From positions 55,614,001-55,678,000 of the forward strand of contig OX597825.1 of NCBI GenBank assembly GCA_951406725.2: a DNA stretch of 64,000 nucleotides, in the 5' to 3' direction. Numbering within the stretch: position 1 is the first letter of the stretch; the number at the start of each line of letters is the position of its first letter. Of the stretch, positions 3,673 to 64,000 are shown piece after piece. Under the pieces are notes generated by a model, which was given only the letters and a program-made list of their open reading frames with translations, did no database searches and had not been told where the DNA came from. This stretch comes from Octopus vulgaris. Its lineage: Eukaryota. The translations under genes were made by a program, and so were the position numbers.

Positions 3673-4167
3673 TTAAGAATGAGAACCCAGGTTTGAAATT
3701 TCCCCAAGAGTATATCAGCCAAAACGTGTTAACAACAAACAAGATGAGGACAAATATCCGGCAAATGTAAATAATGTAAATAATGTATGATATTTAATGT
3801 TGATACAATACCACAAATCGTGGAGAAAACATGTGGTCAATTTAATCAACTCATAGTATATTACTGGTACTTATTTGGTCATTATTGGTTTCAGCTGAAT
3901 TTGAAACCAGGATGGAAGCAACACAAATCCTCTAAGTTAAGTACGTTGCCCTCTCTATTACTCTACAGTTTTCTATATATTGTAATTCGATGCTTTATAA
4001 GACTTAAGCATCAGGTGTGTATGTGTACCTGTTTTAGTATGTTTGTGTGTGTGTATACAATGTAAGGTCATATATATATGTATATATATTCATGTATATA
4101 TATATATATGTATACATATATATATATATGTATATGTATATATATTATATGCATATGTATATGTATA

Positions 4168-19496: not shown

Positions 19497-20091
19497 TGTA
19501 TAGATATAAATATACATACCATATAGTGCACAGGTGTATATGCATGGTATATGTGTGCCTTGATGCATATGTGTATATGTTTATGTATGTGTGTGTGTGT
19601 GTTGTTTTTACAAAAGATATAACATGCTCATTTCAAGATTACTTTCTCTGTTGTGTCTCTTCTTCGTACCTCTTCTCTCTCTCTTGTATCTCTCTTTCTC
19701 TCTCTCTTTCTCCCTTTTTCTCTATCTCTCTGTCTTTCTCTCTTTCTCCCCCTCAATCTGTCTCTCTTTTCTCTTTTTTCTTTCACACCTTCATATTGCC
19801 CCTTCTGTCATGTCTTTCTTTCTCTTTTTCTCCTCCTTCCATACTCTTTCTCTCTTTCTTATTGCATTTATTCTTTTTTGCTTTCTCTCTCTCTCTCTAG
19901 CCATCTCTCTCTCTCTCTCTCTCTCTCTTTTGCCCTATTGCTCTATTTCTACCTCTCTAGTTTTCTATTTTTTTCATCTAATTGCTTCCACACCACATTC
20001 TATTTGTTTCCAATGTTCAACATATTTTGCCTGTCTGTTGAACTCTCCTTTTATTTATCCACCCATCCATCCAACCATCTCTCTCTTTCTA

Positions 20092-20131
<40 letters not shown>

Positions 20132-20329
20132 GCTGTTTATCTGTCTTTTGTACCTGTCTATCATTTTATCAATCTATCTATCCATCACCCTGTCTCAATC
20201 ATTATCTCTCTCACAAAGTGTACATACATATGCATACAAGCAAACATACACACACATGCATACACCCAATCATACACACATACACACATACATACATACA
20301 CATATACATATAGGCATACACACATACAT

Positions 20330-20667
20330 ACAAGTGAAAGAGGACATTTATTGGCCATTGATAAGGAGTTTGCAAATCCAGTACCCAAGATACACTTTCA
20401 GCTTCTTACTTATCCTTATCGGAGAAACAGGAAACATACAGACCCATCTGGAGCAAAGTATGGCTGGATTTGATTTCTTAGAGAGAGAATGCAAATCCTT
20501 AATTCATATGTTACAAATGGTTATGATATTTGAGACTACAAAAATCTGCAAAACCTTCATAAGGTTTATAGGACAAGGATTAAAGATGATACTTTTCTTC
20601 ACAACCATGCTACCAAGTAGTTGGCCAGTCAAAATTTACTCTAAAATTAAAAAGATGAAGAGAAGAA
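20330..20667 (+). mobile_element. 5'-truncated RLE non-LTR retrotransposon (R4-like), CATA-associated, subfamily 1
   Basis: Encodes QVKEDIYWPLIRSLQIQYPRYTFSFLLILIGETG...TTKICKTFIRF, homologous to the copy at 20684; flanked by cata repeats. Confidence 0.7.
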
Positions 20668-20683
20668 CATACATACATACATA

Positions 20684-21201
20684 GATGATAGAGAAGAGAA
20701 ACTGTGCACAGTTGTGGGAATTAGCTGCCCAGCGGATGTTAACATAATGCTGAAGATCAGTGAAAAAGAGAACACCTACGCTGAAGTATTGAGAAATCTG
20801 CAGTTACTCTATCCAAATTACAAGTTTGGGTTTATACCTGTAATAATTGAAGCCCTGGGATATGTAACACACTGCCTAAATACCAATCTTGAGAAATTAG
20901 GCTTCTCAAACCAGAAAGGAGAAAGCTGATTTAATGACTACAGATCCAATCAATCACTGGAACTGCAGTAATCTGTAAAACTTTCCAGACGTTTATTATT
21001 TAAATATATATGAACATGTCTAGATATACAACTATACGTATAAGAATACATACATAAAGCAAAACATACAAATCTTCACATATACACACAAACAAAAATA
21101 CCCAGTTGATGTTGAAATTTCAATGAAGGAGCCTTGAATCTAAGTTAGAAACCAGCTTTTTCTCCATTGGCAAGAAATCTTGGAACAAAACTGAACAATG
21201 A
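20684..21201 (+). mobile_element. 5'-truncated RLE non-LTR retrotransposon (R4-like), CATA-associated, subfamily 2
   Basis: With frameshifts DREEK..TVV.ISCPADVNIMLKISEKENTYAEVLRNLQLLYPNYKFGFIPVIIEALGYV...ICKTFQTFII*, the (E/D)xxCP...EK..Y...IPxIIGALG pattern of the RLE domain; 3' UTR ends in gacatac. Confidence 0.8.
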
Positions 21202-21208
21202 CATACGT

Positions 21209-21400
21209 ACATGTCTAGGCATGCAACTATATGCATGAAAATACATGCATAAAACAAAACATACAAATCTGCACATATACATACATACAAAAATATCCTG
21301 TTGATGCTGTTGAAATACCAATGAAGGAGCCTTGGATCTAGATTAGAAACCAACTCTCTCTTTATTGGCAAGAAATCTTGAAATAAAATTGGATAATGAC
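21209..21400 (+). mobile_element. Third tandem piece (3' UTR only) of the same RLE family
   Basis: Diverged direct repeat of 21014-21201, ending in gacatacatacat. Confidence 0.8.
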
Positions 21401-21793
21401 ATACATACATACACTTATATACTTATGTACATATATAGTGGTTAGGGTATTTAGAGTGTTGTACTTCTGATTGCCAGATTACTGCTTCCAGTCTTGGACT
21501 GAGCATTTTGTTCTTGCACATTGTCTGGAGAGAGAGAGAGAGAGAGAGATAGTGATCAAGAGAAGTGGTATGAAGAAAAGATGCAGCAAAGAAAGCAATC
21601 TTGAAAATCACCTCTTGTCCATTATACATTGTACTCCAGTCACAGCCATAGCTGACATGTGGCACACTGTACTCCTGTATAGGCAATATTGATTTGATGG
21701 AAGGAGTTAGCTAACATACATCAATAAACATTTGATCCCTATAAACACATTCCTATAAACCATTGCAGGTTGTTTGGCAAGAAGTTGCAGAAC

Positions 21794-22025
21794 GAGGCGG
21801 CCAGCCTTCAGAAATGTTAACACTCCGGGTGAAATGCTTAGCGGTATTTCAGTTGCCGTTATGTTCTGGGTTCAAATTCCGCCAAGGCCGACTTTGCCTT
21901 TCATCCTTTCGGGGTCGATAAATTAAGTACCAGTTATACACTGTGGTCAATGTAATTGACTTAATCCGTTTGTCTGTCCTTGTCTGTCCTCTCTATGTTT
22001 AGCCCCCTGTGGGCAATAATGAAAT
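21794..22025 (+). mobile_element. SINE family B, full length, with 15-bp TSD
   Basis: B box 'gggttcaaattcc'; TSD aagaagttgcagaac at 21779-21793 and 22026-22040. Confidence 0.92.
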
Positions 22026-27952: not shown

Positions 27953-28432
27953 ATTAATTAATAATGAAGGGTACTACTTGTAGACTCAGCATGCTAAAAA
28001 TAGCAGTCAAAACAACTCAAAACCATAGTTTTCCCTTGTACCCAAGAGTAAAATCGAGGGAAAAAGTAATAAAATTTTAAGACCCCAAACCATAGACGAA
28101 AAGAATTGAAAATTAAAATCAAACATACTTACATCAGTGATTTCAAACTTTGTGAATGATCACTTTGTTCTCATCAGTGAGTAATACTGACCCAGGGCCA
28201 AAACCATGCTTACTGATGATAAGAGATAATTCACAAAGTTCAAAACCACTGTGATATTAGTATGTCTGATTTTCATTTTTAATACTTTTTGTCTACGGTT
28301 TGGGGTCTTAAAATTTTATTGCTCTTTCCTTAATTTTACCCTTGTGTACAAGGGAAAACTGTGGTTTTGAGTTGTTTTGACTGCTATTTTTAGCATGCTG
28401 GTGCTACAAGTGGTACTCTTCATTATTAATTA

Positions 28433-28434
<2 letters not shown>
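27953..28434. mobile_element. ~480-bp foldback element / MITE (long imperfect palindrome)
   Basis: Left arm 'attaattaataatgaagggtactacttgtag..cagcatgctaaaaatagcagtcaaaacaactcaaaacca' is the reverse complement of the right arm 'tggttttgagttgttttgactgctatttttagcatgctg..ctacaagtggtactcttcattattaattaat'; pairing continues to about 28180/28210. Confidence 0.9.
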
Positions 28435-32714: not shown

Positions 32715-33160
32715 TGCACATGAGAAAGTAAGGAGGGATGTCAGGAAGGGCATCGCTGTTACACTTCCAGAAGGGAAGGTCCTCCTTTGCTTCTGACATG
32801 CAATGTCTGTGCAAGACCCTGCCTCAGTAAAGCTGGACTCAAGAGTCATCTTTGTAGTCATAAAACGAGACAGATGAGTGACAACCTGGCCACTGGTGGT
32901 GGTGTAACACGCCATACTAATCATATCTGTCGGGTATGTGGAAGAGAGTGTAATTCGGCAGGAGGACTTAAACGACATGCAAAGGTACATGAAGCCCTGT
33001 TACAACTACAGCCGGCTATTACCAGTAAAGGTTTTAGTTGCCAATTTTGTACAAGACATTGTAGATTTTTAGCTGGGCTAAAAAGTCACATTCGATCACA
33101 GCACTAGTAATAGTTAAGCTTCGTGCAATGGCCACACTCAATAATGAGGGGGAAGTCATA
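32715..33160 (+). mobile_element. 5'-truncated RTE-clade LINE 3' end with three C2H2 zinc fingers and (TATG)n tail
   Basis: CNVCARPCLSKAGLKSHLCSH / CRVCGRECNSAGGLKRHAKVH / CQFCTRHCRFLAGLKSHIRSQH* match the CxxCxRxCxSxxGLxSH terminal finger of RTEs; no TGEKP linkers; short 3' UTR then (tatg)n. Confidence 0.75.
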
Positions 33161-34624: not shown

Positions 34625-34881
34625 TATAGTATAAAGATAGATATAGATAAGGCTGGTTTATGGGATGACCCTGGGTTTCACATCCAAAAATTGCTTAGCT
34701 TTACAGTGTATCATCAGACCCCCAAACCTATTGGCACATGGTCTCCAGCAAGTGGCATCTCTAGAGAGGTCATGTGCCAACAAGTTTTGAGGTCTGCTGA
34801 TATGCTGTAAAGCTAAGTGCTTTATGGTCATTAAAACCCAGAGTGATCCCATAGACTGTCCATATCTATCTTTATACTATA
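34625..34881. mobile_element. ~257-bp palindromic MITE-like element
   Basis: tatagtataaagatagatat ... atatctatctttatactata termini; internal arms 'gcttagctttacag...cagacc...ttggcacatg' and 'catgtgccaa...ggtctg...ctgtaaagctaagt'. Confidence 0.85.
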
Positions 34882-44990: not shown

Positions 44991-45500
44991 ATACAGAAGA
45001 GAAACCGTGTACAGTTGTAGAAATCAGCTGCCCAGCGGATGTTGACATAATACTATAGATCTGCGAAAAAGAAAACACCTATATTGAACTATAGCTATTC
45101 TTTCCAGGTTACAAGTTCAGGCTTATACCTGTAATTATTGAGGCACTGGGATATGTAACACACTGTCTAAATACCAATCTTGAGAAATTAGGTTTCTCAA
45201 AACCAGAAAAGAGAAAGCTGATTCAAAGACTACAGATCCAATCCATCACTAGAACTGTAAAAGTCTGTAAAACTTACCAGAAGTTTATTATTTAACTATA
45301 TGTGAGCATGTCTAGATTTGCAACTATATGCATGGGATTGCATACATAAAACAAAATGTACAAATCTGCACATATACATACATACAAAAGTATCTTGTTG
45401 ACGTTGTTGAAATTCCAATGAAGGAGCTTTGGATCTAGGTTAGAAACTGCTTCTTTCTCTATTATTGTCAAGAAATCTTGAAATAAAACTGAATAATGAC
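44991..45500 (+). mobile_element. 5'-truncated RLE non-LTR retrotransposon, CATA-associated subfamily 2
   Basis: Closely similar to 20684-21201 (EEKPCTVVEISCPADVDI...FIPVIIEALGYV...LGFSKPEKRKLIQRLQIQSI); ends gacatacacacattcatacatac. Confidence 0.85.
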
Positions 45501-49882: not shown

Positions 49883-50140
49883 TTGAGAAGAAAGGGGGAG
49901 AAAGAAAGAAATGGTGAGTAATTTGACGTGTGTTTGTATTTTTGTGTAGGTATGTCAACAGATGTATGTGTGTATGTACATACATTAGTATGTGTGTAAG
50001 TATATATAAATACATATACACACAAACACTCACACACAGACATATATATATACACACACACGAACTTACCTACGTACATATATACATGCATACATACATA
50101 CATACATACATACATACATACATACATACATAACAAACAG

Positions 50141-50378
50141 ACATACATTGAGTTTTGTTGGGATTTTCAGAAAGAGAAACTGACCGGCTGATTCGTACAT
50201 TAAAGTCCAATTTGTAAGTGGAGCAATAAAAATATGCAAGACACTTATCAAGTTCCAAATGTGAATTTGTCTGTGTTAACTACATCCCAAGGATGGATAC
50301 TTGTATCTTTGTTGGAAACCGGCTTCCTCCTCCTCAGTGGAAGATTTATAATAATTAAAAAGTAGAAGAGACAAACAT
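50141..50378 (+). mobile_element. Short 3' piece of the CATA-associated RLE family (diverged)
   Basis: After (cata)n 50089-50132: LGFSERETDRLIRTL/QFVSGAIKICKTLIKFQM*; UTR contains 'gttggaaaccggct' and ends 'aattaaaaagtagaagagacaaacatacat', like copy 1. Confidence 0.7.
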
Positions 50379-55984: not shown

Positions 55985-56820
55985 GTAGTGTGTGTATGTG
56001 TGGCTGTGAGAGTCTGAATGTGAGTTTGTGTTTCTTTATGTATACGTTTATGTGCATGTGCGTACATTTGTGGTTCTGTACATGTGTGCGCGTGCTTTTG
56101 AAAGAAAACGGAGGCGGTATGATGGTTGCGATGGTAGTGTGGTGGTGGTGGTGGTGGTGGTGGTGGTAGTAGTGGTAGTGGCGGTGGTGGTGGTGGTGGC
56201 GGTTGGTTGTGGAGAGGGTGACGTTGGTGGGGTGCAGAATAAGAATCGATTTTGTTTAAGGTTATAGAACCACTTAAAAGATATATTCTTGGGACTGGGA
56301 GAATGGAATTGAGTTAGTATGGGCTGTGCTCAATATATATTCAATTAGATATGACATTCAAAGAAATATAATGAAAACCAAAAAGAAGTAAACGAAAAAG
56401 AAAGGAAAAAGAGGAGAGAAAAGCCAAAAGAGAGAGAAGATATGGAGGAGGAAGAAGAAGGTGGAAAAGCAGGGGAGGAGTAGGAAGAGGAAAAGGAAAA
56501 TGTCGAGGAAGGAAAAGAATCTTCACACTGTGAGATTGGTGTTTGCTTTGATAGAAGAACGAGGGAAAAGTATAATTATAAAGATGAGGAGAGAAAGGGA
56601 GTGAGAGAGAAAGAGAGAGAGTGAGAGTGAGGTAGTGAAAGTGAGAGAGAAGGGGGATGTGGGTGATGGGGAAAGTGGGAAAAGAAATAGCACGTGCGAG
56701 AAAGTGAGAGTGAGAAGGAGTGGTGTTGGGTTTGGGTTTGGGAGAGGGGGGTAAATAGCTCCAATTTTACTCTTGGGAGCTTTGCAGAAATAAAAGATAG
56801 TTGTAGAACTCCCTGAGATA

Positions 56821-57960
56821 ATGGTTGAGTTATTAAGAAGTGGAGAACAGAACAACAGCAGCAAATGCAGCAAAAACAGCAACACCAGTGAAGACAGCAA
56901 CAGCAGCAAAAGTAGTAATAAAATCAACAACAATAACAACAGCTACAATTATCGCATCAAAAACAGCACGGAAACAGCAATGACTGCAGTAAAAACAGCA
57001 CGGCGAGCAACAAAAACAGAAACACCAGCAGCAAAGGCAGCGAAAACAGCAACACCAGTGAAAACAGCTACACCAGCGAAAACAGCAACGCCAGTGAAAA
57101 CAGCAACACCAGCAGCAAAGGCAGCGAAAACAGTAACACCGGTGAAAACAGAAACACCAGCAGCAAAGGCAGCGAAAACAGCTACACCAGTGAAAACAGT
57201 AACACCAGTGAAAACAGAAACACCAGCAGCAAAGGCAGCGAAAACAGCTACACCAGCGAAAACAGTAACACCAGTGAAAACAGAAACACCAGCAGCAAAG
57301 GCAGCGAAAACAGCTACACCAGCGAAAACAGTAACACCAGTGAAAACAGAAACACCAGCAGCAAAGGCAGCGAAAACAGCAACACCAGCGAAAACAGAAA
57401 CACCAGCAGCAAAGGCAGCGAAAACAGCAACACCAGTGAAAATAGCAACACCAGCAGCAAAGGCAGCGAAAACAGTAACACCAGTGAAAACAGAAACACC
57501 AGCAGCAAAGGCAGCGAAAACAGCAACACCAGTGAAAACAGAAACACCAGCAGCAAAGGCAGCGAAAACAGCTACACCAGCGAAAACAGTAACACCAGTG
57601 AAAACAGAAACACCAGCAGCAAAGGCAGCGAAAACAGCTACACCAGCGAAAACAGTAACACCAGTGAAAACAGAAACACCAGCAGCAAAGGCAGCGAAAA
57701 CAGCAACACCAGCGAAAACAGAAACACCAGCAGCAAAGGCATCGAAAACAGCTACACCAGCGAAAACAGTAACACCAGTGAAAACAGAAACACCAGCAGC
57801 AAAAGCAGCGAAAACAGCAACATTTGGCGAAAACAGCAATAGCAGCAGTCATAGTAAAACAACAATAGTAACAACTACTCTACAACTATCGCATGAAAAT
57901 GACTGCAGCAAAAACAGCAAAGCCAACAGTAAAAAAGAGAAGCAACAGCATCAAGAATAG
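56821..57960 (+). CDS. Hypothetical K/A/T/P-rich repeat ORF (379 aa); coding status unproven
   Basis: ATG-initiated ORF spanning the minisatellite, with many TP(A/V)K motifs; two antisense frames are also open. Confidence 0.25.
   Translation: MVELLRSGEQNNSSKCSKNSNTSEDSNSSKSSNKINNNNNSYNYRIKNSTETAMTAVKTARRATKTETPAAKAAKTATPVKTATPAKTATPVKTATPAAKAAKTVTPVKTETPAAKAAKTATPVKTVTPVKTETPAAKAAKTATPAKTVTPVKTETPAAKAAKTATPAKTVTPVKTETPAAKAAKTATPAKTETPAAKAAKTATPVKIATPAAKAAKTVTPVKTETPAAKAAKTATPVKTETPAAKAAKTATPAKTVTPVKTETPAAKAAKTATPAKTVTPVKTETPAAKAAKTATPAKTETPAAKASKTATPAKTVTPVKTETPAAKAAKTATFGENSNSSSHSKTTIVTTTLQLSHENDCSKNSKANSKKEKQQHQE
57013..57822 (+). repeat. Minisatellite of 18-bp (aaaacagcaacaccagtg) and 12-bp (gcaaaggcagcg) modules
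   Basis: Direct reading; higher-order 30/48/66-bp blocks. Confidence 0.97.
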
Positions 57961-62763: not shown

Positions 62764-64000
62764 GGGTGCAGAATAAGAATCGATTTTGTTTAAGGTTATA
62801 GAACCACTTAAAAGATATATTCTTGGGACTGGGAGAATGGAATTGAGTTAGTATGGGCTGTGCTCAATATATATTCAATTAGATATGACATTCAAAGAAA
62901 TATAATGAAAACCAAAAAGAAGTAAACGAAAAAGAAAGGAAAAAGAGGAGAGAAAAGCCAAAAGAGAGAGAAGATATGGAGGAGGAAGAAGAAGGTGGAA
63001 AAGCAGGGGAGGAGTAGGAAGAGGAAAAGGAAAATGTCGAGGAAGGAAAAGAATCTTCACACTGTGAGATTGGTGTTTGCTTTGATAGAAGAACGAGGGA
63101 AAAGTATAATTATAAAGATGAGGAGAGAAAGGGAGTGAGAGAGAAAGAGAGAGAGTGAGAGTGAGGTAGTGAAAGTGAGAGAGAAGGGGGATGTGGGTGA
63201 TGGGGAAAGTGGGAAAAGAAATAGCACGTGCGAGAAAGTGAGAGTGAGAAGGAGTGGTGTTGGGTGTGGGTTTGGGAGAGGGGGGTAAATAGCTCCAATT
63301 TTACTCTTGGGAGCTTTGCAGAAATAAAAGATAGTTGTAGAACTCCCTGAGATAATGGTTGAGTTATTAAGAAGTGGAGAACAGAACAACAGCAGCAAAT
63401 GCAGCAAAAACAGCAACACCAGTGAAGACAGCAACAGCAGCAAAAGTAGTAATAAAATCAACAACAATAACAACAGCTACAATTGTCGCATCAAAAACAG
63501 CACGGAAACAGCAATGACTGCAGTAAAAACAGCACGGCGAGCAACAAAAACAGAAACACCAGCAGCAAAGGCAGCGAAAACAGCAACACCAGTGAAAACA
63601 GCTACACCAGCGAAAACAGCAACGCCAGTGAAAACAGCAACACCAGCAGCAAAGGCAGCGAAAACAGTAACACCGGTGAAAACAGAAACACCAGCAGCAA
63701 AGGCAGCGAAAACAGCTACACCAGTGAAAACAGTAACACCAGTGAAAACAGAAACACCAGCAGCAAAGGCAGCGAAAACAGCTACACCAGCGAAAACAGT
63801 AACACCGTGAAAACAGAAACACCAGCGAAAACAGCAACACCAGTGAAAACAGCTACACCAGCGAAAACAGAAACACCAGCAGCAAAGGCAGCGAAAACAG
63901 TAACACCAGCGAAAACAGAAACACCAGCAGCAAAGGCAGCGAAAACAGCAACACCAGTGAAAACAGTAACACCAGTGAAAACAGAAACACCAGCAGCAAA
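62764..64000 (+). repeat. Near-identical second copy of sequence from 56230 onward (offset 6534 bp)
   Basis: Starts 'gggtgcagaataagaatcg' right after the gap; few differences seen (tttggg/tgtggg, aattat/aattgt, 1-nt deletion near 63807, different module order). Confidence 0.95.

Follow-up and report, generated by a model that had tools for sequence, protein, structure and literature searches.

Pieces of retrotransposon that stand one behind another in the same orientation, with nothing but a short repeat between them, raise the question of which came first, the repeat or the elements, and of what in the elements finds the repeat. Such an arrangement lies in the window analysed here, that is, the whole stretch of 64,000 nucleotides of Octopus vulgaris DNA (GCA_951406725.2, contig OX597825.1, positions 55,614,001 to 55,678,000). 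An earlier note on this DNA had read it as one family of RLE retrotransposons that targets (CATA)n and re-inserts into the regenerated target. The features concerned, lettered A to E where they are element pieces, are as follows:

20221..20332, plus strand: degenerate (TACA)n/(CA)n array upstream of the stack (TRF: 28 TACA copies, 66% matches)
20333..20668, plus strand: piece A, 3' end of family F2 with the end of the RLE domain, stop codon and short 3'UTR (profile, translation)
20667..20683, plus strand: (ACAT)4 array, at once the 3' flank of A and the 5' flank of B (TRF, 4.2 copies)
20687..21201, plus strand: piece B, 5'-truncated copy of family F1 with the C-terminal part of the RLE domain, frameshifted, and the 3'UTR (profile alignment)
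21202..21208, plus strand: CATA-phase linker between B and C, "catacgt", one unit and a degenerate one (sequence)
21209..21399, plus strand: piece C, F1 copy with 3'UTR only (profile match starts at 21203; 83% identical to B)
21400..21411, plus strand: (CATA)3, 3' flank of the stack (sequence)
44991..45499, plus strand: piece D, 5'-truncated F1 copy with CATA-phase 3' flank (profile; 82% to B)
50089..50132, plus strand: (CATA)11 array upstream of piece E (sequence)
50158..50370, plus strand: piece E, 3' end of family F3, then degenerate CATA (profile alignment)

The three consecutive pieces are where the earlier note had placed them, with profile matches at 20328–20668 (A, the opening bases being CATA-like in the profile alignment), 20687–21201 (B) and 21203–21399 (C), and they are indeed split only by CATA repeats, A from B by (ACAT)4.2 and B from C by "catacgt". 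CATA-phase sequence lies directly 3' of all five pieces. The two further copies, D and E, share the plus orientation and this 3' flank as had been claimed, but at the 5' end of D there is "tatac" in place of a CATA array. What did not hold is the single family: B, C, and D belong to F1 and are 82–87% identical to one another at the DNA level (blastn), while A (F2) and E (F3) give no blastn match to B, and A reaches 32% against D in tblastx. Nor does each piece encode a diverged protein, C being essentially 3'UTR without any real protein. C was also considered as a recent tandem duplicate of B; this is ruled out, since the identity of the two (83%) is near the F1 family mean of about 85%. The F1 3'UTR contains an internal CATA block of its own, at about 21046–21095 in piece B and at about 21245–21290 of the window. 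Elsewhere in the window, a block with a tandem array (56230–57850) recurs about 6.5 kb downstream (62764–64000) with 95–100% identity, a recent local duplication, and two self-inverted stretches, 27953–28434 (83%) and 34625–34881 (75%), are possibly MITE-like.

Searches of the 2.80-Gb assembly (227 contigs) gave first-look DNA candidates for B (6338), A (2069) and E (2575), and 40820 first-look protein candidates for the B peptide; none of these figures is a copy number. Mean pairwise identity is 81.6% in F2, 85.3% in F1 and 88.5% in F3; the low value for F2 suggests that piece A is probably the oldest member of the stack. Family copies are frequently truncated at the 5' end and share a fixed 3' end, and a natural F1 copy (L063) spans about 3.93 kb. 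Among the 150 best RT matches in the genome there was no intact ORF of a CATA family, the long frames at L088 and C3:1634055 having proved to be microsatellite read-through. Pieces A–E are decayed, 5'-truncated RLE non-LTR retrotransposons from three families. Several F1 copies carry an (AGT)n array within the 5' coding part (L064, reverse, about 4065–4130; L047; L056).

Junctions were counted with profiles made from natural copies and run over loci L001–L170 and the window. The 597 profile hits reduced to 280 without overlaps, to 256 chains and, after removal of duplicates, to 199 copies, sampled as the 30 best-scoring per search and not as a random draw. Junctions on the 5' side were dropped if they fell within 40 nt of either end of the locus or coincided with the start of the profile, and those on the 3' side entered the count only where the copy extended to the family end. 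A perfect (CATA)n run of 8 nt or more, read on the element strand, scored as positive. On this basis, 109 of 180 5' junctions are positive (F1 71/108, F2 17/33, F3 21/39), and so are 93 of 132 3' junctions (F1 50/69, F2 19/30, F3 24/33). The opposite-strand repeat, (TATG)n, occurs at four of the 180 5' junctions (three in F1, none in F2, one in F3) and at the 3' junctions of one F1 copy, one F2 copy and no F3 copy. The asymmetry of 109 against 4 has a binomial p of 1e-27, and random windows more than 300 nt from elements have CATA in 100/5000 cases (2%) and TATG in 111/5000; chance association was rejected on these two comparisons. CATA of at least 7 nt stands on both sides in 65 of the 120 copies having both junctions. 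The signal falls with distance upstream, from 109/180 at the junction to 9/168 at 360 nt, and the arrays can be long, with at least 12 nt at 54 of 108 F1 5' junctions.

Full-length 5' ends behave like truncated ones. For full-length F1, 22 of 30 loci showed the 5' motif (L184, among them, is a false placement); 13 of the 22 have at least 8 nt of CATA and none has TATG. At the other end the phase of F1 is fixed: CATAC follows 31 copies, the next class four. Other repeats contribute little, TA, CA, and AGAT being little enriched at the junctions and TAA of at least 8 nt being found at 0/180 5' and 2/132 3' junctions of F1–F3. Three unrelated interspersed repeats gave CATA in 3/352 and TATG in 10/352 junction windows. 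There are 71 5' junctions of the 180 without 8 nt of CATA, piece D among them, and these misses include internal deletion breakpoints; for at most six of the positives, the junction divides a single F1 copy at the CATA block inside it, and without them the count would be 103/174. The enrichment on both sides that the earlier note proposed to look for is thus present, and the case it named against itself, with CATA only at the 3' end and random 5' flanks, does not agree with CATA at varied truncation points and at full-length 5' ends.

Whether the repeat was there before the insertion can be read from stacked copies and from host sites. Family pieces within 300 nt of each other form 30 same-strand pairs and one opposite-strand pair. 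Ten of the 30 are splits or deletions of one copy; the other 20 comprise 14 that follow a 3' end (in two of these, L011 and L158, the piece is probably the continuation of a host that had been interrupted), five at the internal CATA block of F1, and one elsewhere. That internal block makes up 3787 of the 126780 F1 bases sampled (3%). A host repeat spanning both flanks was sought for 114 copies and gave pairs in nine, two of them clean. The copy at L136, of family F3, lies within the F1 UTR block, and uninterrupted paralogues hold CATA there; at L093, an F1 copy lies in what uninterrupted paralogues show to be the CA/TA/CATA middle of another interspersed repeat. Where the pre-insertion site can be read from such paralogues, it thus appears to have contained CATA or a CATA-like repeat already. 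Contigs of four related-species runs, compared with positions 19950–21800 of the window, matched so many paralogues that no junction bridging the stack emerged, and no orthologous empty site was obtained from them. The microsatellite target and the re-insertion put forward in the earlier note are supported by strict polarity, same-strand stacking and paralogous host sites with CATA, while the specificity of nicking is something we infer.

The internal block of F1 was seen to expand and to take insertions of F1, F3, and a further element, X. It has grown to long arrays in 11 F1 copies. Of 30 F1 pieces ending at the block, 14 have no remaining UTR within 400–1370 nt downstream, which could mean that priming occurred internally, that the stretch between two arrays was deleted or that something large inserted there later.

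Element X is a 555-bp non-coding repeat (L221–L250, at about 1500–2060 in element orientation) with 2591 first-look candidates at about 90% pairwise identity. Of its ends, 21/26 on the left and 18/26 on the right have at least 8 nt of CATA, and none has TATG. No tRNA gene (four loci), no credible Rfam match and no body sequence shared with F1–F3 or with F4 (see below) was found for it. Diverged X subfamilies occur at L231 and L017, and in the window a minus-strand piece ending near 33158, CATA-flanked on both sides, shares only the first 49 bp with X. The element could be a passenger of the CATA lineage, or a short retroposon of opposite polarity belonging to another LINE.

A search with the relative P0021 brought up a further family in the same genome, F4, which is 32% identical to the query. 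Its copies have open frames of 1235 aa and are about 98.5% identical (loci L201–L220, for example L201:1333–5037). (TAA)n follows 19 of 20 F4 3' ends and, read by eye, stands at 8 of 20 5' truncations; identity between the CATA lineage and F4 is 21–32%. F4 is a young, intact family of Dong type and a candidate active element of this genome. Because F4 carries TAA, and because unrelated repeats rarely have CATA, the flank belongs to the family and not to the genome.

The encoded protein has a single ORF in the order Myb-like N-terminus, RT, CCHC knuckle and RLE. Pfam RVT_1 passes its cut-off in two stretches of F1 as well as in relatives, and downstream of the RT in F1, F2, F3 and relatives lie the motifs CRLC..H..C and RPD..E/D..K, which we take to be the CCHC knuckle and a PD-(D/E)xK-type RLE nuclease, respectively. 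The nuclease itself draws a weak Pfam match (HSDR_N_2, E 0.027), and Pfam gave no match to an APE endonuclease. The predicted fold of the relative P0031 (pLDDT 87) has R2 proteins as its best match (E 1e-34, 15–19% identity). The N-terminus of L254 is modelled as three helices (pLDDT about 95), with SANT/Myb-type domains as top matches, namely ISWI (Z 6.9, rmsd 2.1, 72 aligned) and the DNAJC2 SANT domain (Z 6.0), scores that are moderate and below Z 8; Foldseek returned nothing at E ≤ 1e-3 for the same model. An ESM Atlas search gave generic RT clusters only. A homologous N-terminal stretch is present in 30 of 30 F1 loci, the motif aligns with that of TAA-flanked relatives, and the alignment of the lineage contains no N-terminal cysteine finger motif. 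An R4/Dong-type architecture is supported by the RVT_1 match, the knuckle and nuclease motifs, the R2-like fold and the SANT/Myb-like N-terminus together.

At the 5' ends of L251–L254 and of F1 (L172, about 1108–1215) a short GC hairpin is followed by a possible long stem. Rfam gave no ribozyme family in the 5'UTR of L172 or of seven loci. Folding z-scores of six 5' ends run from 0.13 to −2.36, below −2 in L253 only, and with values this weak we do not claim a conserved 5' structure.

Relatives outside the octopus genome place these families. A search with a natural F1 frame of 298 aa found 13 proteins at 42–51% identity, and one with P0031 found 84 proteins at E ≤ 1e-100, most of them 42–65% identical; the single named close homologue is from Argonauta hians. 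A metagenome scan gave 433 related stretches, of which 78 loci were kept. The closest of these that have a long ORF are L251–L254. Of them, L253 and L254 have (CATA)n on the element strand at both contig ends and are 39–48% identical in amino acids to F1 and F3; L252 has (CTTA)n at both ends, and L251 has (CTTA)n at the 5' end only. No flanking repeat was seen at L255. Further contig searches yielded two distant loci in genome contigs and one in viral contigs, none of them informative. A Streptomyces assembly also holds a Dong-type ORF on one contig of 4 kb (L330), probably eukaryotic contamination.

A quick tree was built from the C-terminal ~410 aa of 42 of 80 public loci (those with at least 250 residues covered), 11 rows from the octopus genome and 11 proteins. 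Unrooted and without named reference or outgroup sequences, it gathers F1, F2, F3, L251–L255 and the proteins in one clade (SH-aLRT 100), in which F2 groups with L253 and L254 and not with F1 and F3. The other clade comprises F4 with 37 loci; 17 of these bear the label TAA-type, and no locus is of CATA or CTTA type. The nearest other group in this unrooted tree is the TAA-flanked Dong type. A second tree of 39 rows has the same split. The family idea of the earlier note stands as regards the link with CATA, but what carries the link is a sub-lineage that comprises three families or more and has relatives in other organisms.

Taken together, the flanks and the conserved domains make it likely that three single-ORF RLE families sit in (CATA)n in one orientation by way of a protein that would recognise and nick the repeat and prime there, although CATA-specific cleavage is the presumed part of this reading. 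In the course of events we propose, the N-terminal Myb/SANT-like module and the RLE would bind to (CATA)n and introduce a nick in the TATG strand; the freed 3' end would prime cDNA at the 3' end of the RNA, probably aided by pairing of read-through (CAUA)n; synthesis would mostly halt early, and the cDNA would join the upstream part of the same array. Since the array would be split but would survive on both sides, further insertions in the same orientation could follow, by whichever family of the lineage. For the stack in the window, A, the older F2 copy, was probably there before two F1 copies inserted into its 3' array.

Site choice might instead lie mainly in base pairing, a loosely specific nick being used wherever the (CAUA)n at the RNA 3' end anneals to TATG, so that CATA pre-exists and the protein does not read it. 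The strict polarity and the fixed 3' phase fit this equally well, the 14 F1 pieces that end at the internal block with no remainder speak for it, and pairing of the RNA tail is described for L1/Alu priming in PMC3812793. However, the protein tree has flanks of TAA type, CTTA, and CATA on different branches (tails would be inherited likewise), the lineage retains the Myb-like module that passages of PMC7998251 argue directs Dong specificity, and the long 5' arrays exceed what a short tail would need; we think pairing unlikely as the main determinant. That the elements make the repeats, through a short CATA tail and a small target duplication at near-random sites with later expansion by slippage, appears improbable. 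CATA blocks do expand, as in the 11 F1 copies with long internal arrays, and some junctions have few CATA-like bases, yet 5' arrays at arbitrary truncation points match the 3' arrays in frequency and length, insertions into F1 cluster at an existing CATA block, and uninterrupted host paralogues contain the repeat.

That the elements accumulated passively or by chance, the genome being rich in microsatellites, is hardly credible: the window does have 467 TRF rows, and passive accumulation near CA repeats has been suggested for Drosophila Waldo-A/B (PMC3812793), but the strand asymmetry contradicts it, as do the slight enrichment of TA, CA, and AGAT, the 3/352 of unrelated repeats and the presence of F4 in TAA. 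Returning to recognition by the protein, we would extend it only tentatively, to a scenario we find possible but doubtful: a large, undescribed, intact RLE lineage would have left the TAA of Dong for four-base repeats, would switch between CATA and CTTA via the Myb-like module of about 70 residues, and would here have mobilised the 555-bp passenger X into the same target, so that it both uses and multiplies host CATA arrays.

The general picture of target-primed retrotransposition is unchanged by these results. They explain part of the repeat layout of this genome, with thousands of copies of several families piled in CATA arrays, and they supply natural pairs: the CATA and CTTA relatives are 43–46% identical, have long open ORFs and have targets one base per unit apart. 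With such pairs it is testable whether the Myb-like module, the nuclease or the RNA tail reads the site, a question that bears on retargeting R2-type insertion tools.

In O. vulgaris, 51 Dong-R4 families covering 92.7 Mb, five of them recently active, are reported in PMC13282606, whose main text and supplement, as searched, describe no target site for them; other octopus papers list Dong-R4 without a target in the portions consulted (PMC8967140, PMC9115989). F1–F3 may be among these annotated families, and F4 would fit the recently active ones. A search confined to the open literature, and so apart from Repbase, Dfam, subscription journals and Fell et al. (2025), whose screen of 4464 genomes is mentioned in parts of PMC5753468 and PMC13586686, found no CATA or CTTA target for R4/Dong. 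The earlier note's suggestion of an undescribed CATA-specific RLE element holds to that extent, but an ACAT-type target is known from the unrelated Waldo elements: the R1-clade WaldoAg1, WaldoAg2, and WaldoFs1 target ACAY repeats (PMC3812793), and ACAT is a rotation of CATA. Waldo elements are insect elements of the R1 clade with an APE endonuclease and two ORFs, in contrast to the single ORF and C-terminal RLE found here; with a different nuclease and clade, a shared target would be convergent.

Among RLE elements, the NeSL-related Togen targets (TG)n and, with some HERO families, is microsatellite-specific (PMC4640811); from their descriptions, these belong to other lineages and use other repeat units. 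R2 provides the best structural and profile matches, at the 15–19% identity given above, but targets 28S rDNA and has N-terminal zinc fingers, of which there are none here. Closest is Dong. For R4/Dong a Myb-like domain is reported, and in most insects, molluscs, and cnidarians Dong elements use TAA as their target (both PMC7998251); Bombyx Dong, DongAg, the snail DongBg and the ostracod Dong are like the present lineage in having a single ORF with RT and RLE, a Myb/SANT-like N-terminus without zinc fingers, and insertion in microsatellites (PMC7998251, PMC3812793). Unlike Dong with its (TAA)n, the lineage here probably targets (CATA)n and its sister rows (CTTA)n, and it forms a separate clade. 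Microsatellite targeting itself is known; the association with CATA is real and well supported, and the lineage is likely a tetranucleotide-targeting sister of Dong.
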